A stretch of DNA of 64,000 nucleotides from a virus (Duplodnaviria; Heunggongvirae; Uroviricota; Caudoviricetes). The position numbers and the translations under genes were made by a program. Where the stretch lies: IMG/VR virus record IMGVR_UViG_3300028895_001083, one strand, 5' to 3'. Below are positions 5,838 through 53,658 of the stretch, one piece after another; the stretch's first letter is position 1, and each line of letters opens with the position of its first letter. The notes under the pieces were generated by a model, which saw only the letters and a program-made list of their open reading frames with translations, did not search any database and was not told the DNA's origin.

Positions 5838-5944
5838 CAAACCATCAGAGTGTCTTTCTCAAGAAAGGCAACAGGGGCGGCGGTTGACCGCTTCCGCCGC
5901 CCCTACTTTTACTTTCAAGCATACAACTACCGGGAGGGTTCACA

Positions 5945-8447: not shown

Positions 8448-8469
8448 GTGCGCTCTGCGCACTTTTAGG
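8448..8469 (+). terminator. Rho-independent terminator
   Basis: GTGCGC-tct-GCGCAC hairpin followed by TTTTAGG, directly after the stop at 8393. Confidence 0.5.
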
Positions 8470-8908
8470 TTCGAGTCCTGACGCGGGCACTTTTTCGACT
8501 GTCCGTGTGGCGAAATTGGAAAACGCAGGTCCCCTCCCAGCAGACTTCGACAGCTTACTCCTAGGCTCACATAGGTTTGTCATGATGTGCAATCAATCGC
8601 TACGAGAAACCCATTTTGAATATACGGGTTAGATTCCCGTCCCGGCCTCCTTATTGTCCACACGCTACCCATAAGGGCCGGGTCGTATAATGTTAATACG
8701 TTCAACATACTCAGACTAACCTCGTGGCTTAAACGGTGGACAGTGCATATCTGCGTTTACGCTAAACCGAACCCAGGGCCCCCCCTGTCAGGACAATATG
8801 GGTTAGGGGCCCGCCAGTGCCGAGTCAATAGTCGACAGCCGTGGCTTCACAGCCTTGCGGTAGCCCGGTGCGATCCCGGGTCGGCGCTCTCATAGAAAGG
8901 AGGACGAC

Positions 8909-9262: not shown

Positions 9263-9480
9263 TGAGCGTCGAGTATATCGACACTGACTTGTGGACGAAA
9301 CGGTGCGGCAGCGACTACAGCCGCAACCGCTTCTCGCTCGGCCTGGCGCTCAGCCGCGTCGACTGCTTGGACTTCATCCTTGTGAGTGTGTACATCGGCC
9401 CCTGGAAACTCTGGTGGCGTACACGCACCAAGGCGGAACGCATCAAAAAGGCCGAGGCCGCTTGGCCTTGGTGGTACTAA
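9262..9480 (+). CDS. Hypothetical protein (W-rich)
   Basis: ATG overlaps the upstream TGA (TGATG), consistent with translational coupling. Confidence 0.55.
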   Translation: MSVEYIDTDLWTKRCGSDYSRNRFSLGLALSRVDCLDFILVSVYIGPWKLWWRTRTKAERIKKAEAAWPWWY

Positions 9481-9492
9481 AAGGAGGATACG

Positions 9493-9744
9493 ATGTCATG
9501 GAGAAAATTCTGGCGCGATTTGCGATGTTTTGCGGCCGGAGAACCCAGTCCCCGCAACGTAACTCTCGGCGAGGCTCACATCAAACATTTGGCCGGCGGA
9601 GGCAACATTGTTTTGCCCCGCAACACCGTCAAGATCACGTTTGCCGACCTCGGCCTCGAAGGCATGCTCGCAGCCATCTCGTCAGGACATCTTACTATTG
9701 ACGCCGTCGGCGATGACTTCGTCTACAGAAAGGAAGACGCTTGA
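9493..9744 (+). CDS. Hypothetical protein
   Basis: AAAGGAGG SD with 6-nt spacing. Confidence 0.6.
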   Translation: MSWRKFWRDLRCFAAGEPSPRNVTLGEAHIKHLAGGGNIVLPRNTVKITFADLGLEGMLAAISSGHLTIDAVGDDFVYRKEDA

Positions 9745-13192: not shown

Positions 13193-13584
13193 CTTTAATC
13201 GATCTTTTGGTGCTCGCTATGGCGGCACATACCCTCGTCAGCGTGTGGTTGCAAGACGGCGGGCTATTCGAAAGCTGGCGCGATTGGCTTCGTGCCTGGG
13301 CAACGCCCACGATGCGCCAGCACAGCTCGTACGAAATGCCCACCCGTTGGTCAATGGTTCGTATGAAGATCGCATACTTGGCAGAATGTCGTTTCTGCCT
13401 AACCTGCCAGGCCTGCTTTTGGCTTCTGGTACTCTTCTGGCTCCCCGGCTATTGGCTTCCAGCCATCTGGGGTGAAATCCTCTACGTGCCGGTGTACGCA
13501 CTGGCTGCTGCATGCATTGCTAGTGCCGCGACGTATCTGATGGATGCGCTCGAGGCGAAAGCAGAATCTTATTCACGAGAATAA
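13189..13584 (+). CDS. Integral membrane protein
   Basis: GGGAAG SD and multiple TM helices. The stop TAA lies inside palindrome site 2. Confidence 0.5.
   Translation: MTLIDLLVLAMAAHTLVSVWLQDGGLFESWRDWLRAWATPTMRQHSSYEMPTRWSMVRMKIAYLAECRFCLTCQACFWLLVLFWLPGYWLPAIWGEILYVPVYALAAACIASAATYLMDALEAKAESYSRE
13569..13584 (+). promoter_or_regulatory. Palindrome-family site 2 (TTATTCacgaGAATAA)
   Basis: Perfect TTATTC-N4-GAATAA ending 1 nt before the ATG of gene 13586. Confidence 0.55.
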
Positions 13585-27144: not shown

Positions 27145-27915
27145 ATGGAAACAAAATGTGCGCATGCGCAGCAGGACTGGGCGACAGCCTTACTGCAGCG
27201 ACACGGCAAACTGATGGAAGTCGAGGAGATGGAGGCCCTCATTAAGAGGGGTAAGGCAGGGGACGACGACGCGCGGAACCGCGGGATTGCTGGTTGCTAC
27301 AGGCTGGCCTTTCAACAGGCCTGGCGCGCAGCGTACAACGATCCCCACTTCTCCGTCGACGATCTCTTCCAGGAGGCCGTGATCGGCCTCATGAAGGCAG
27401 TCGAGCGCTGGCGACCAGAAACGGGCAACCGATTCGTAACCGCTGCTTGGTTCTCGATCCATGCCGCAATCTCATGGTACAAAAAGTGCCATAGGCGCCT
27501 CGTATACTACCCGCCCCGCTGGGACGAAAAGGGTGTCAAGCGGCCGGACTGGACTAAAGACTGTCCGGAGCTGTTTGCAGACTACGTGTCGTTGCATAAA
27601 CGCGTGGGCACGGGCAATAGGCGAAATCCCGGGATATTCGTGTACGAGATGATTGAAGACGAGACGCTGCGCGACTTCGTTGCCGACGTCGAGAGCGAGG
27701 ACCAAGCCGATATGGTCTACGAGGCGTTCGAGAAGTTGACGGAGCGTGAAGTCGACATACTGCGGCGTCGCTATCTCGGCGACAAGCTTTGGGAGATCGG
27801 TAAAGTTTACGGAATCACCCGCGAACGTGTTCGGCAGTTGATCATCAAAGCCGAAAATATCATCCACAATCACGTCTTGAAAGAGCAAATCGATGGAGAC
27901 GCTGGTACTGCTTAA
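27145..27915 (+). CDS. Sigma-70 family sigma factor (phage-encoded)
   Basis: Region 2-like FQEAVIGLMKAVERW...FVTAAWFSIHAAISWY. Region 4 HTH EVDILRRRYLGDKLWEIGKVYGITRERVRQLIIKAE. Confidence 0.75.
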   Translation: METKCAHAQQDWATALLQRHGKLMEVEEMEALIKRGKAGDDDARNRGIAGCYRLAFQQAWRAAYNDPHFSVDDLFQEAVIGLMKAVERWRPETGNRFVTAAWFSIHAAISWYKKCHRRLVYYPPRWDEKGVKRPDWTKDCPELFADYVSLHKRVGTGNRRNPGIFVYEMIEDETLRDFVADVESEDQADMVYEAFEKLTEREVDILRRRYLGDKLWEIGKVYGITRERVRQLIIKAENIIHNHVLKEQIDGDAGTA

Positions 27916-29568: not shown

Positions 29569-29664
29569 CAGCACTTCGCGGGGTCGAAGTTGCGTCAGCC
29601 AGCCACCGAGTGTGGCCTGTGCCAAAAGCCCACTCGGTAGGCTGGTCTTATACAAGGAGCCGCC

Positions 29665-30003
29665 ATGGACCGCATGATGACGATCAGCGAGGAGGAACGG
29701 GCGATCATCGAAGCGTGTATCGCCGACTGCATCGATGCAGTGACAAAACAACGTATGCTCTGCATGCGTGAAGACCGCTTGGCTCGTAAAGAACAGCTGC
29801 AGCTGAATGAGGAGTATCGTAAGCTGTCTCCTGCGGACCGTCGACAGACGGGAAGCGAACTGTTGCAGTTGGAGGTCCGAATGGAGGAACTCATAACTCG
29901 GTTCGACCCAGATGACTGGGAACCGACACCTGACATTGAGGAACTCTGTTTGGATGGACCACGTGACACCTCGTCGACCGAAACGAAATTTTCTTCCGGA
30001 TGA
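29665..30003 (+). CDS. Hypothetical protein
   Basis: AAGGAG SD. Confidence 0.6.
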   Translation: MDRMMTISEEERAIIEACIADCIDAVTKQRMLCMREDRLARKEQLQLNEEYRKLSPADRRQTGSELLQLEVRMEELITRFDPDDWEPTPDIEELCLDGPRDTSSTETKFSSG

Positions 30004-30069
30004 AGGAGTTAGTTCCTTCCGAAGGAAGGTACTGACTCCATTGCATTGCCTTCCGTAAGGAAGGTAATG

Positions 30070-30123
30070 TAATAAACGACTAAAGTTGGTCCAGAGGGCC
30101 AAAGGCACTTTAGTCGTTTATTA
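30070..30123 (+). repeat. 17-bp perfect AT-rich inverted repeat with 20-nt spacer
   Basis: TAATAAACGACTAAAGT ... ACTTTAGTCGTTTATTA. It is flanked by further hairpins (CCTTCC-GGAAGG x2, TCCCTC/GAGGGA, GGGGGCGG/CCGCCCCC). Confidence 0.5.
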
Positions 30124-30171
30124 TAAGGCGGGGTATGGATGTGCTCCCTCTGCTGAGGGACCCGTCCAATT

Positions 30172-30187
30172 TTATTCACGTGAATAA
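30172..30187 (+). promoter_or_regulatory. Palindrome-family site 3 (TTATTCacgtGAATAA)
   Basis: Perfect copy inside the structured 30.0-30.25 kb hub, 70 nt upstream of gene 30257. Confidence 0.55.
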
Positions 30188-30256
30188 GAAGCGTTCCCAG
30201 GGGGCGGTATGTGGCCGCCCCCATAAGTGTTGTTCTTTCCCAGAAGGAGGCCTCAT

Positions 30257-30790
30257 ATGGCCAAAGGAAAGCGAAAGAAGAAGCGTGCTCCGATGATCAG
30301 CAAGACCGAGGAGCTTGGCCCGAACGACCGGACCCTCTTGATCCGGCGGTATCGGAAGAAGTTCCCCAAGACTGACCGTGTCATCAAGATGAGCAATGGC
30401 CGGAAGCGCCGAATCAAAGGCATGCCGGCCACCGTTCTGTTGAACGAGAAGATCCTGCGAGATTACCCCCACAGCGGGGTCACCGCGCAGAACATCTACA
30501 ACTTCGACTCGGACGTCAAGAACGGGAAGAAATCGAAGCCGGTGGGCAAGTCCAAGAAGACGCCGGCACGGGCAGAGGCACAGACGCCCGAGACCACGAC
30601 CCCGCAGAAGAGCGTGGACCTCAATGGCATGTCGCTGGAAAAGTCGCAGACCCTCTTCGAACAGATGAAGACTGCGAAACCCACCGCCATGCCGCGACTC
30701 TTCGGTCAGTTCATGGCCGAGATGACGACGCAGATGGACAAAGCGACGGAATGGGCATCGAAAACCACGGTGTCCGATCTGATCAGCTAA
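30257..30790 (+). CDS. Basic (K/R-rich) protein, possible nucleic-acid binding
   Basis: GAAGGAGG SD. N-terminus MAKGKRKKKRAP. Confidence 0.6.
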   Translation: MAKGKRKKKRAPMISKTEELGPNDRTLLIRRYRKKFPKTDRVIKMSNGRKRRIKGMPATVLLNEKILRDYPHSGVTAQNIYNFDSDVKNGKKSKPVGKSKKTPARAEAQTPETTTPQKSVDLNGMSLEKSQTLFEQMKTAKPTAMPRLFGQFMAEMTTQMDKATEWASKTTVSDLIS

Positions 30791-31061
30791 CCCGGGCGTT
30801 TGCCACTCTCTGTCCTACACTTGCCACAGAGAGCGTGCCGGTTACCCCCTCCTAACCCGAGGGAAGGTGATCAGGCTCCGCGGTTCGTCCTTCATTGGGC
30901 GGCCGCGGCCTCGACCTGGGGTTCGGTCGGTTTGTGACGAACGCTAGTTGAATTCCCCCCAATTTAACCAGTGGTACCGCCAAACCCCAGGTCACAAAGC
31001 ATCAAAATGCGCGCCTTCTTGATGCCCTCAGAGGCGCGTGGGAAGATGCGTTCATGTACAG

Positions 31062-31098
31062 CGCCGCCCCACATCGTCGTGGGGCGGCGTCATTTCTC
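31062..31098 (+). terminator. GC-rich 11-bp hairpin plus T-rich tail (terminator or attenuator)
   Basis: CGCCGCCCCAC-atcgtc-GTGGGGCGGCG followed by TCATTTCTC, just upstream of the SD of gene 31117. Confidence 0.4.
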
Positions 31099-31116
31099 AC
31101 ACATAGGAGAGGACAA

Positions 31117-31395
31117 GTGAACAAGGAAAAACTCGAGATGCTCAACGCTATGGGCGCCCTGCTGGACGACCCGGAGACCGTTGACGAGATCGACGAAGTG
31201 CTCGCCCGCGGCGTACAGCTGGTCGAACACGTGCTTGGCGCTATCGCCGACGCCCCGCGTGCGAAAGTGACGGCCGACCACATCGCGAAGCTGTGTCGGA
31301 TGCAGTATCAATCGTTTTTGGACGCTGGCTTCAGCGACGGGCAGGCGTTTACGCTGCTGGTCGGCATCCGCGCCGGTCTCACGAAAATCAGTTGA
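31117..31395 (+). CDS. Hypothetical protein
   Basis: GTG with a TAGGAGAGG SD. Confidence 0.5.
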   Translation: MNKEKLEMLNAMGALLDDPETVDEIDEVLARGVQLVEHVLGAIADAPRAKVTADHIAKLCRMQYQSFLDAGFSDGQAFTLLVGIRAGLTKIS

Positions 31396-31814
31396 TACAT
31401 GTGCGTGTGGGGCTGTGGGCTTAGAAGCAGCCATCAGCTAAGGAGTGGCGAGTGGAAGTGCTCTGGACCGGGTTAGCCGCCCGGCCACCACAAGATAACC
31501 GTGCAGCATGACCGTTGGCAACGGATCGGCGGCTTCGACTGGGCATGGTGTCACCACCGGGAAGCGACAGCGGATGCGACGCTACGACCGGCCACGTACT
31601 ACCGAAAGGCTTCGGTCGCCGTAGCGAATCAGAGTTCGTGAAGTCAGAGGGATGCAGTTTGCTACGGTAGTACCAGCGGAGTCCGTAGTTAAGGTTGAGA
31701 GACGACAATCGAAGTGTCGGGAAAACAATGCTCTTCCAATGCTGTATTCGTAGCCCGTGGAGCCTTTGGCGTGACAGCACACCCCACGCACATTTTTACA
31801 AAAGGAGAGGAGTT

Positions 31815-32048
31815 ATGATCGCGCGAGCGAAACCCGGCTTCGACCCGGAGATCATTCGGTGTTCCGTGTTCGCTCTTCAGGTCTGCGTGCCTGCCACGTG
31901 GACTGACGAGGAGATCGAAGAGTTCGCTGAACAAGAGCACCCGGCCGGTGCTTTCGATGGGTGGCACATCCAGCGCGACGGGCCGTATCCGGAGCGCGTT
32001 TCATGCAATGACCGCGAGGGGTTCATCCACGTGGTCGTGGAGGTATAG
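31815..32048 (+). CDS. Hypothetical protein
   Basis: AAAGGAGAGGAG SD. Confidence 0.55.
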   Translation: MIARAKPGFDPEIIRCSVFALQVCVPATWTDEEIEEFAEQEHPAGAFDGWHIQRDGPYPERVSCNDREGFIHVVVEV

Positions 32049-36676: not shown

Positions 36677-36905
36677 ACTCGCCTTCGACGAGATCACCGT
36701 AACGCTCAGCGACTTCCAACGACACTGGCAGTTCAAATATGGCGACAAGCATTTGGCGGACTGGTGGCCAGCTTCTGCGAAGGGACAGCTCACAGGGTCA
36801 CAAGACTCCGTCGACTGTGTGAGCACGTCTCAAGCGCAGAAGCTGGCCATCGCCGCTAAGAAGAAGCTGTTTACCGAGATTCGGCAGGCGCTTCAGCAGA
36901 GGTGA
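36600..36905 (+). CDS. Hypothetical protein
   Basis: High GC3 in this frame where it overlaps the low-GC3 tail of the HldE-like ORF. Confidence 0.5.
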   Translation: MRPSKRALRQERLKTALEELETLRTELAFDEITVTLSDFQRHWQFKYGDKHLADWWPASAKGQLTGSQDSVDCVSTSQAQKLAIAAKKKLFTEIRQALQQR

Positions 36906-37491: not shown

Positions 37492-37507
37492 TTATTCAGG
37501 AGAATAA
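37492..37507 (+). promoter_or_regulatory. Palindrome-family site 4 (TTATTCaggaGAATAA)
   Basis: Perfect copy ending 1 nt before the ATG of the SbcD-like gene (37509). Confidence 0.55.
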
Positions 37508-43756: not shown

Positions 43757-43763
43757 AAGAAAA

Positions 43764-43797
43764 GGCCCGCTGGTGGCACAGCGAGCCTTTTGTGTTT
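43764..43797 (+). terminator. Rho-independent terminator
   Basis: GGCCCGCTG-gtggca-CAGCGAGCC (9 bp, 1 mismatch) followed by TTTTGTGTTT. Confidence 0.6.
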
Positions 43798-43898
43798 CAC
43801 GACCTGCAGGGGCATGCGGTCATGGCGGTATGTTACTGCCAATGATAGCGGACCCTGCGCATGTGGTCAACCCCGTTGGGGGGACCAAAGGACGCAGA

Positions 43899-45450: not shown

Positions 45451-46134
45451 ATGCAGCGGCCGCCGCCGGAAGAATACGAGGCGCTGCCGGAACGCAACAT
45501 GTTCTCCACCAACCCCGCTGGTCACATGGCCAGGCGGCTCTACCAAGCGTACAAACGCGAGACATACTGGCGTGCTATGCGCGTGGAGAATGTCAAGCTA
45601 CCGAACTTCAACACGCGCGAGCTGGGTGACTGCTGGCCGCGGCTGGCACGCCTCATCATGCAGTCGGGCTGGTCGAATGCCGAGCGGTTCATCCACGTGC
45701 AGTTCAAGTACGGGCCGAGCAGCGAGAAGCTGCAGACGCTCGAGCACGGACCGCTGGTGAACATGCTCACGTCCGAAAAGGCGATGAAGCAGTACACGCA
45801 GTACATCGTCCGTGCCGACAGCATGCTGGTACAGCAGTTGGAGTCTGCCAAACTCGAGTTCAAGTGTGCTAGCGCTGAATGCGCGGGACAGTACCCGCAC
45901 CTGCCCACCAGGGAGCGCTGGGAACTTATTCTCATGAATAAAATGTTGGATCTCCCGCCGCTGTTCCGGTACTGCGTGGCCTCTTCCGAGGGGCTCGCCT
46001 GTGCCAAGGACTTGTGGGAAGAAGGCTTTCAGCAGTTCATGTCCGATCCGATCGGGTATACGCGTACGTGGGAAGCGACCATTCCTGCCGAAATGAAAGC
46101 CGAAGCCGAAGAACTACTGCAGCTCAAACTCTAG
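45451..46134 (+). CDS. Hypothetical protein (contains intragenic palindrome site 5)
   Basis: First ATG after the helicase stop. Confidence 0.45.
   Translation: MQRPPPEEYEALPERNMFSTNPAGHMARRLYQAYKRETYWRAMRVENVKLPNFNTRELGDCWPRLARLIMQSGWSNAERFIHVQFKYGPSSEKLQTLEHGPLVNMLTSEKAMKQYTQYIVRADSMLVQQLESAKLEFKCASAECAGQYPHLPTRERWELILMNKMLDLPPLFRYCVASSEGLACAKDLWEEGFQQFMSDPIGYTRTWEATIPAEMKAEAEELLQLKL
45926..45941 (+). promoter_or_regulatory. Palindrome-family site 5 (TTATTCtcatGAATAA), intragenic
   Basis: Perfect copy inside ORF 45451-46134. It embeds in-frame ATG AAT AAA ATG and lies about 200 nt upstream of the DnaB-like helicase gene. Confidence 0.45.
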
Positions 46135-53586: not shown

Positions 53587-53658
53587 ACGTTACTATTTCT
53601 GCACCTCAGCTCCGCCCGGTCCGTGGCCGGGCGGAGCGTTTCTTAGGACCAATATCCA

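Follow-up and report, generated by a model that had tools for sequence, protein, structure and literature searches.

We analysed a stretch of 64,000 nucleotides (nt) of DNA from a tailed virus of the Caudoviricetes (IMG/VR record IMGVR_UViG_3300028895_001083), hereafter the window, and found two intergenic regions of exceptional predicted structure, IGR0 and IGR1, one on each side of a single ORFan gene that encodes a protein of 177 amino acids (aa). We tentatively favour the reading that IGR0 and IGR1 are cis-acting RNA punctuation modules of the sense strand, placed between single ORFan genes, and that a third spacer, IGR2, is only weakly constrained. An initial annotation of this DNA had proposed a non-coding RNA (ncRNA) in IGR2. 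This was the wrong stretch, since IGR2 folds like shuffled sequence, has no Rfam match and is the least conserved part of the locus. Structured RNA is predicted in the locus, but it lies in IGR1 and not in the stretch that had been put forward, and in IGR1 the exceptional structure spans the whole spacer and not just the last hairpin, which was the one noted earlier. IGR0 lay outside the coordinates of that annotation. The three spacers are:

30004 to 30256, plus strand: IGR0, a 253-nt spacer between a 112-aa gene and the 177-aa gene, about 49% GC
30791 to 31116, plus strand: IGR1, a 326-nt non-coding spacer with six serial hairpins, H1 to H6
31396 to 31814, plus strand: IGR2, a 419-nt non-coding, G-rich spacer that folds poorly

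All structural statements made here are thermodynamic predictions on a single sequence. The minimum free energy (MFE) of IGR1 is -156.1 kcal/mol, compared with -114.7 +/- 5.0 kcal/mol in dinucleotide shuffles (z = -8.25), and its ensemble is well defined, with a centroid close to the MFE structure. IGR1 was also the most stable among 1062 native 326-nt windows of the phage (GC-corrected z = -3.3). Each of its hairpins is significant when folded alone, with z from -2.8 to -6.9:

30806 to 30833, plus strand: H1, a stem of 8 base pairs (bp) with a 12-nt loop, -8.8 kcal/mol, z = -2.8 (inverted repeat I14)
30837 to 30876, plus strand: H2, 15 pairs with a C-rich 5' arm, -19.4 kcal/mol, z = -2.9
30878 to 30908, plus strand: H3, 12 pairs, -21.4 kcal/mol, z = -4.8
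30913 to 30993, plus strand: H4, 81 nt, with an inner hairpin (loop CCCCCC) inside a long stem GACCUGGGGUU/AACCCCAGGUC, -37.7 kcal/mol, z = -5.5 (inverted repeat I2)
30999 to 31049, plus strand: H5, a core GCGCGCCU/AGGCGCGU closed by GCAUC/GAUGC, -22.8 kcal/mol, z = -3.1
31061 to 31100, plus strand: H6, terminator-like, a 12-bp GC stem at 31061-31090 with a 6-nt loop, followed by the tail UCAUUUCUCA, -27.9 kcal/mol, z = -6.9

The signal from IGR0 is equally clear, with an MFE of -126.8 kcal/mol (z = -9.84) that none of 200 shuffles reached and that is likewise extreme against native windows; in a sliding MFE scan, the 150-nt fold signal was stronger there than anywhere else in the window. Its hairpins are near-perfect (30005-30039, 30042-30071, 30072-30121, 30136-30168, 30170-30189 and 30200-30224), and a CCTTCC-N3/4-GGAAGG core occurs twice in IGR0 and nowhere else in the window. 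When 28 intergenic gaps of 90-520 nt were folded, IGR0 and IGR1 were the two most structured, followed by the gaps at 36677-36870 (z = -7.1) and 43757-43898 (z = -4.8). The former of these contains a hairpin of about 120 nt and -71 kcal/mol (36748-36868), and the latter a hairpin resembling a bidirectional terminator (43760-43791), then a 104-nt hairpin just before a helicase gene. IGR0 and IGR1 are alike in build: a stop codon is followed by about five hairpins, a GC stem, a broken U-rich tail and a Shine-Dalgarno (SD) sequence, and the start codon lies 27-33 nt beyond the terminal stem. In IGR0 the last hairpin (30200-30224) has this GC stem, U-rich tail and SD, 33 nt before the ATG at 30257. 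No sequence similarity was found among IGR0, IGR1 and IGR2, nor between them and the rest of the window or 14 kb of extensions.

The strand on which the hairpins fold best suggests that they act as RNA. Over the 12 hairpins that IGR0 and IGR1 have between them, the predicted folds contain 17 G·U pairs on the plus strand and 2 on the minus strand (seven and none in IGR0 alone). The summed hairpin energies also favour the plus strand, by 22 kcal/mol in IGR0 (-109.7 versus -87.3 kcal/mol) and by 15 kcal/mol in IGR1 (-137.3 versus -122.7 kcal/mol), and for IGR1 as a whole z is -8.3 on the plus strand and -4.3 on the minus strand. Since a DNA palindrome should show no strand bias in G·U pairs, the structures of IGR0 and IGR1 appear to have been selected in the sense transcript. 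It is extremely unlikely that the hairpin arrays act instead as DNA, for example as a replication origin, as cruciforms or as operators for a protein such as the basic 177-aa product. Such a role would be consistent with the finding that both strands of IGR0 were highly significant in the gap comparison (z = -8.8 on plus, -9.3 on minus), with the AT richness of IGR0 relative to the genome, and with the presence in it of its repeated CCTTCC core and of one copy of the palindrome TTATTC-N4-GAATAA. However, it would not account for the G·U bias or for sense-strand hairpins that are consistently the more stable, the replication genes are 12-20 kb distant, and no iterons or direct repeats are present.

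The AT-rich palindrome found in IGR0 is itself over-represented, with five copies in the window compared with 0.08 expected:

2584-2599, 13569-13584, 30172-30187, 37492-37507 and 45926-45941: copies of TTATTC-N4-GAATAA

A partial copy lies about 716-730 nt past the window end, in contig L025. The flanks of the copies are conserved (consensus GAATCTTATTCAnGnGAATAAAATG), an ATG occurs within 1-2 nt after three of them, and one has AGGAG in its N4 centre. The palindrome may serve as an operator, or as a hairpin for translational control, where genes adjoin. Upstream of IGR0, the 96-nt spacer before the 112-aa gene (29569-29664) has the stronger fold signal on the minus strand (z = -5.4, compared with -2.3 on the plus strand).

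The 3' end of IGR1 resembles an intrinsic terminator. The 11-bp GC hairpin that the initial annotation had pointed out before the SD of the gene at 31117 is there as a perfect inverted repeat (31062-31072/31079-31089), and the stem of H6 in which it lies has the stability, GC richness, length (12 pairs) and small loop (6 nt) of an intrinsic-terminator stem. The T-rich tail that was described with it is U-rich, but its U tract is broken: UCAUUUCUCA has 5 U in its first 8 bases and so lies at the threshold of the terminator scan (at least 5 T in the 8 bases after the stem), which flagged H6. The SD lies 14 nt and the GTG at 31117 lies 27 nt after H6. GC stems of 11-13 bp that are followed by an interrupted T tract and precede a start codon by 20-40 nt recur in the window:

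5873 to 5904: terminator-like hairpin of this build
30200 to 30224: the same, the last hairpin of IGR0
31061 to 31090: the same, the stem of H6
53609 to 53637: the same

Judged from this recurrence, a GC stem with an imperfect T tract is read as the probable usual terminator of this phage.

The arrangement at the end of IGR1 had been likened to an attenuator, and the layout, a terminator-like hairpin just before the SD of the gene at 31117, is as described. IGR1 would then be a regulated leader of the downstream 92-aa gene, working by attenuation, as a riboswitch or by protein-mediated antitermination, in which a signal decides whether H6 forms. The position of H6, 27 nt before the start codon and after about 270 nt of structured RNA, would suit such a leader; IGR0 has the same layout before the 177-aa gene, and premature termination in 5' untranslated regions (UTRs) is common in a giant phage (PMC11512511). 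The defining parts of an attenuator are absent, however. When the 3' arm of H6 was blocked in constrained folding, the local energy rose from -52.1 to -27.3 kcal/mol, and the only replacement for the roughly 25 kcal/mol lost was a weak 5-bp alternative helix; no competing helix appeared in IGR0 either when its terminator 3' arm was blocked. IGR1 contains no convincing SD-led leader peptide, no known aptamer even at E<=10 and no promoter that we could find inside the spacer. We therefore consider a regulated leader improbable.

The Rfam scan that the initial annotation had proposed as a check assigned no family to either IGR1 or IGR2, at gathering score or at E<=10, and the best matches in 29900-32000 had E values of 1.5-9.5, far below threshold. 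Integron attC sites, ends of IS200/IS605 elements, retrons and CRISPR repeats were also considered and rejected, there being neither the required partner protein nearby nor an Rfam match. No sigma-70-like promoter site was found on the plus strand between 30000 and 32500, and no spacer motif that could serve as a shared phage promoter emerged from k-mer enrichment with 0-1 mismatch. Since the phage encodes its own sigma-70-family factor (27145-27915, with regions 2 and 4 only), the missing canonical promoters are weak evidence, and given that the closest non-self match of this factor has 32% identity, it is likely that the phage uses promoters specific to itself.

This sigma factor is relevant to the proposal that IGR1, and likewise IGR0, is a stand-alone gene for a trans-acting ncRNA of about 250-300 nt, with its own non-canonical and possibly phage-sigma-dependent promoter, which would end at H6 and possibly serve as a regulator, decoy or protein scaffold. 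Its promoter need not resemble a sigma-70 site. A long non-coding gap with an extreme z, a defined ensemble and a terminal terminator hairpin is the signature of a small RNA (sRNA) gene, the bias of G·U pairs to the sense strand would be expected, C-rich loops such as the CCCCCC of H4 are present, and three intergenic sRNAs are known in the giant phage 201phi2-1 (PMC11512511). Nevertheless, no promoter-like site was found on the plus strand, no terminator stands between the upstream stop codon and H1, so that IGR1 may be part of the 177-aa mRNA, no Rfam family or homologue was found, and there is no paralogue in 78 kb of the phage. Furthermore, serial simple hairpins without multi-helix junctions look more like punctuation than like a catalytic or aptamer RNA. 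On balance we regard a stand-alone ncRNA gene as unlikely. A bolder proposal, that IGR0 and IGR1 are sense multi-hairpin RNAs of about 250-330 nt that bracket the very basic 177-aa ORFan and belong to an undescribed phage RNA system, is a long shot. Such RNAs might form a ribonucleoprotein with the 177-aa protein or act as decoys against host RNA-guided or RNA-sensing defence.

In the punctuation reading that we favour, IGR0 and IGR1 would be transcribed in the gene sense, each after a single ORFan gene. The upstream hairpins would most likely be barriers to 3' exonucleases, processing sites of the RNase III or RNase E type, or both, and the stability of the flanking monocistronic mRNAs would depend on them. 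The terminal GC hairpin would be a leaky intrinsic terminator that halts most transcription. A promoter does not fit between this hairpin and the SD, only 14 nt away in IGR1, so that read-through would supply the next gene. The terminal hairpin may also, once the RNA is processed, shield the 5' end of the downstream mRNA, and a stable, hairpin-rich fragment derived from the 3' UTR or 5' UTR may accumulate as a by-product.

Several points weigh against this reading. We infer from sequence features that the two spacers are transcribed, where their 3' ends lie and that read-through occurs, as well as the proposed termination, nuclease protection and processing. The U tract after H6 (UCAUUUCUCA) is weak, and five additional upstream hairpins exceed the needs of simple termination. 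The G·U strand bias derives from MFE predictions and is not an independent test of them. The same sequence features would be expected of a discrete RNA acting in trans, or of a role in protein binding. Finally, no homologous sequence of the locus was found in any collection searched, and covariation therefore cannot show selection on structure.

By the same measures, IGR2 is not a structured ncRNA. Its fold is no more stable than that of shuffled sequence (z = -0.93 and -1.25), and against native windows it is less stable than 71-98% of them (z from +1.0 to +1.85). The ensemble is ill-defined, with a centroid of -93.9 kcal/mol and an MFE of -152.5 kcal/mol. The three compact hairpins on which the ncRNA proposal was built all exist (31468-31484, 31602-31615 and 31662-31688, at or within 1-2 nt of where they had been placed), but such hairpins are no commoner than chance, IGR2 having 7 Watson-Crick hairpins of at least 5 bp compared with 4.0 +/- 1.9 in shuffles (p about 0.11). 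The strong SD noted at the end of the spacer was found as described. The features of IGR2 are:

31399 to 31412 and 31782 to 31793, plus strand: inverted repeat I5, 5' arm ATGTGCGTGTGGGG and 3' arm CCCCACGCACAT followed by TTTTT, 12 nt, 92% complementary
31618 to 31668, plus strand: the sole locally significant hairpin of IGR2, a 12-bp stem CCGUAGCGAAUC/GUUUGCUACGG, -21.0 kcal/mol, z = -3.6
31703 to 31719, plus strand: a small 5-bp hairpin, z = -1.2, not significant alone
31801 to 31812, plus strand: AAAGGAGAGGAG, the SD of a 77-aa gene with its ATG at 31815

By eye, the arms of I5 pair over about 13 bp (9+4 bp with a 1-nt bulge) and bracket almost the whole of IGR2. On a rough estimate about 0.2 such repeats are expected by chance per region, and the significance of I5 is uncertain; it could represent a long-range helix, be left over from a split hairpin, or have arisen by chance. 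A Rho-dependent terminator (rut site) in IGR2 was rejected, the plus strand being G-rich with a C/G ratio of 0.44-1.0 over most of its length.

Strain variation in the locus comes from one haplotype, contig L004 from SRR6963352. All 7 of the single-nucleotide polymorphisms (SNPs) between L004 and the window in an aligned 3.66-kb stretch lie at 31542-31717, inside IGR2, and the other 3279 aligned bases are identical, those of IGR0 and IGR1 included (Fisher p = 1.2e-7 for the clustering). The initial annotation had named, as observations that would count against an ncRNA, the failure to detect a discrete transcript together with a lack of conservation of the region beyond its flanking genes; the second is what was found, 31396-31814 being the least conserved part of the locus in L004. 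The SNPs 31705 A>G and 31717 U>C affect two bases that pair with each other (base-pairing probability 0.77) and turn an A-U pair of the hairpin at 31703-31719 into G-C, an event with a chance of about 0.03 among 7 random transitions, and a third, 31625 C>U, keeps its pair in the stem 31618-31668 as G·U. Two of the 7 disrupt predicted long-range pairs. We take the compensatory change as a hint that one or two small hairpins of IGR2 matter, and not as evidence for a 419-nt structured RNA.

A functional ncRNA in IGR2, its ends joined by the helix 31399-31412/31782-31793, would draw on the same observations: the arms of the inverted repeat, which pair over about 13 bp, lie almost exactly at the two ends of the spacer, with UUUUU after the second, the hairpin at 31618-31668 is locally significant, and the SNPs include a compensatory double substitution and a C>U change that keeps a G·U pair. 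We nevertheless consider it very unlikely, since the region folds like its shuffles and worse than most native sequence, its ensemble is ill-defined, no Rfam family matches it, no other segment of the locus is as variable, and two of the seven SNPs break predicted long-range pairs.

The SNP cluster is probably due to recombination with a diverged allele. Other strain comparisons gave 1-3 SNPs per 13 kb, with the variation clustered in hotspots. One of these lies in coding sequence at 9267-9547, where contig L027 (ERZ27256770, 220 kb) carries about 25 clustered substitutions together with indels, the rest of the 12.9 kb compared being near-identical. A diversity-generating retroelement was rejected as the source of the cluster in IGR2: the changes are mixed transitions and not adenine-specific, and there is no reverse transcriptase nearby.

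IGR2 could also be a scar of gene turnover without RNA function: what remains of a decayed gene, a recombination junction, or a small insertion with inverted repeats at its ends. The terminal inverted repeat, the SNP hotspot between identical flanks of 3.3 kb (with hotspots elsewhere too, as at 9267-9547) and the ORFans all around would fit this. The 3' ends of IGR1 and IGR2 also share a sequence, CAC(A/G)CACAT followed by the rare SD variant AGGAGAGGA, which fits a cassette-like gain of the 92-aa gene. However, no target-site duplication or other flanking direct repeat is visible, no second copy of IGR2 was found in the window or the 14 kb of extensions, tblastx revealed no similarity to any window protein, and a 119-aa minus-strand open reading frame (ORF) spanning IGR2 looks non-coding. 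A scar is unlikely as an account of IGR2, and it is compatible with the favoured reading rather than exclusive of it. A miniature inverted-repeat transposable element (MITE) would carry terminal inverted repeats; the arms at 31399-31412/31782-31793, about 13 bp with one bulge, may be such repeats or may be due to chance. The multiple copies and the target-site duplication of a MITE were not found for IGR2. Within the favoured reading, IGR2 would be a purine-rich spacer or a long 5' leader of the four-gene block that starts with the 77-aa gene; it may hold a non-canonical promoter or be a recombination scar, with at most two small hairpins under constraint.

That IGR1 and IGR2 sit exactly between the genes for proteins of 177, 92 and 77 aa, as first annotated, is borne out by independent gene calls on public contigs of the phage, which gave the same boundaries. 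The genes flanking IGR1, and the SD of the second, are:

30257 to 30790, plus strand: the 177-aa ORFan gene, ATG at 30257, between IGR0 and IGR1, product with a very basic N-terminus
31117 to 31395, plus strand: the 92-aa ORFan gene, GTG start, SD AGGAGAGGA at 31105-31113

Both spacers are non-coding, in agreement with the initial annotation, as judged by codon statistics and a scan for SD-led ORFs. When codon log-odds were modelled on 13 long genes from the window, ORFs inside the gaps scored -0.30 to +0.22 per codon and the flanking genes +0.20 to +0.57. GC content at the third codon position (GC3) is 0.64-0.82 in the flanking genes, and the GC1>GC2<GC3 pattern occurs in no gap ORF. The sole clearly positive gap ORF is one of 36 aa on the minus strand (30967-31074). 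IGR1 and IGR2 each have just three short ORFs with an SD-like motif, none with coding-like statistics, and no convincing small SD-led ORF was found in either. Hidden genes in the spacers were rejected on codon statistics, on the SD-led ORF scans and on tblastx against the window. The 119-aa minus-strand ORF across IGR2 was rejected on its non-coding codon statistics; by our own count 1 of the 7 SNPs falls at a third codon position, which is the wrong phase for purifying selection.

The 177-aa gene scores +0.52 per codon (GC3 0.82) and the 92-aa gene +0.57 (GC3 0.78). No Pfam or PHROG match was found for the 177-aa protein, and its AlphaFold2 (AF2) model is of low confidence (pLDDT 62); the 92-aa protein is predicted, also with low confidence (pLDDT 64), to form four helices. 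Both models are too poor for a fold search. The 77-aa gene is the first of a tightly packed block of four. Tight packing of the genome as a whole, as was first supposed, holds in part only: on rough gene calls, intergenic sequence makes up about 14% of the window and includes about 28 gaps of 90-520 nt.

The window is part of a large tailed phage of at least 220 kb, the longest public contig being 220 kb. Its GC content is about 58% and the plus strand carries nearly all genes, among them those for a large terminase, a family-A DNA polymerase fused to a uracil-DNA glycosylase (UDG) domain, an NAD-dependent ligase, SbcC- and SbcD-like proteins and a DnaB-like helicase. Three tRNAs at 680-2925 are the sole Rfam matches at gathering score in the window. 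Two further places have tRNA-like features that neither ARAGORN nor Rfam called. At 82-148 a perfect 7-bp acceptor-like stem (GGTATCG/CGATACC) surrounds a perfect T-arm GGGGTTCGATTCCCC, and at 8460-8900, inside a 515-nt gene-free gap, there are three T-arm-like motifs at about 8468, 8627 and 8868.

Near-clonal copies of the phage are present in about 30 public assemblies, and the neighbouring proteins were identical in 24 of the 24 public contigs read. Beyond these copies the searches found no relative. The 5-kb locus had no DNA match by blastn among 50,697 INPHARED phage records; scans of IMG/VR with the 92-aa, 77-aa and NDK proteins found no relative, the lone match (L001) being without tblastx similarity; a scan of JGI metagenomes with local proteins found none; and among 5.8 billion proteins the 92-aa and 177-aa proteins fell in clusters of their own copies only. 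Ten local ORFs had no Pfam match and, at most, very weak PHROG matches. In the search with the sigma factor, a 229-kb contig carrying P0035 was rejected as a relative, being an unrelated marine phage without synteny. A scan of GTDB genomes with the stem pattern of H4 was set aside as uninformative, since only the specified stem letters and a few neighbours match and the interiors cannot be aligned; the matches are a MITE-like repeat family in a Corynebacterium metagenome-assembled genome (MAG) and scattered single sites. In that MAG, Corynebacterium sp. JAUMZC01, at least 11 copies of the repeat are bounded by GACCTGGGGTT...AACCCCAGGTC; the ends have the same stem letters as H4, and the interior is unrelated.

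If the favoured reading is true, the locus would illustrate a way for a giant phage with no known relatives to insulate individual ORFan genes and control their dose, using unusually elaborate RNA modules of five hairpins and a leaky terminator rather than the promoter-terminator cassettes of T4-type phages. It would also help in annotating transcription units of uncultured jumbo phages and offer a source of strong terminator and stabiliser parts. No long-standing question is opened by the locus. As a lesson for annotation, spacer length together with a few short hairpins, as in IGR2, predicts structured RNA poorly, and it is the fold z against shuffled and native backgrounds that singles out IGR1 and the overlooked IGR0.

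Among known systems, riboswitch and attenuator leaders share with IGR1 and IGR0 a long structured leader and a terminator just before the SD, but here they come without an antiterminator, leader peptide or known aptamer. Intrinsic terminators and 3' stabilising stem-loops have the same GC-rich stem of 11-12 bp, short loop and U-rich stretch at the end of a unit. Unlike an intrinsic terminator, however, H6 has an interrupted U tract, lies 270 nt past the stop codon and not just behind it, comes after five other stable hairpins and is followed by the next SD 14 nt away. The early genes of phage T7 have RNase III processing hairpins in their spacers, one per junction. The hairpins described here are similarly long, stable, imperfect and on the sense strand, in the spacers of a rightward polycistronic block, but they number 5-6 per spacer, most of their stems are shorter than two helical turns, and their cleavage is only proposed.

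The PeSL (promoter-early stem-loop) cassettes of T4-type phages consist of a stem-loop followed by a sigma-70-like promoter, an SD and a start codon (PMC4122927, PMC2839356), and form a repeated sequence family within a genome (PMC4122927). Like these, IGR0 and IGR1 place stem-loops between small ORFan genes in a plastic, locally variable region, with an SD and start at the 3' end. In contrast to PeSL elements, the 14 nt between H6 and the SD do not accommodate a promoter, no promoter-like site was found on the plus strand, and IGR0, IGR1 and IGR2 share no sequence and so form no repeated family. In the giant phage 201phi2-1, 132 terminators and 11 sRNAs have been mapped, 8 of the latter arising through premature termination in 5' UTRs (PMC11512511). 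The sRNAs of 201phi2-1 and phiKZ come from 5' UTRs or intergenic regions, are shorter than 250 nt and were defined by mapping where they start and end; one of them is conserved in more than one phage genus (PMC11512511). IGR1 and IGR0 differ from these in being known from sequence alone, with no homologue found, but resemble them in belonging to a giant phage and in being structured non-coding stretches that end at a terminator directly upstream of a gene. Taken together, IGR0 and IGR1 are unusually elaborate yet not categorically new, and belong with the intergenic terminator and stability structures of phages or with UTR-derived RNA.

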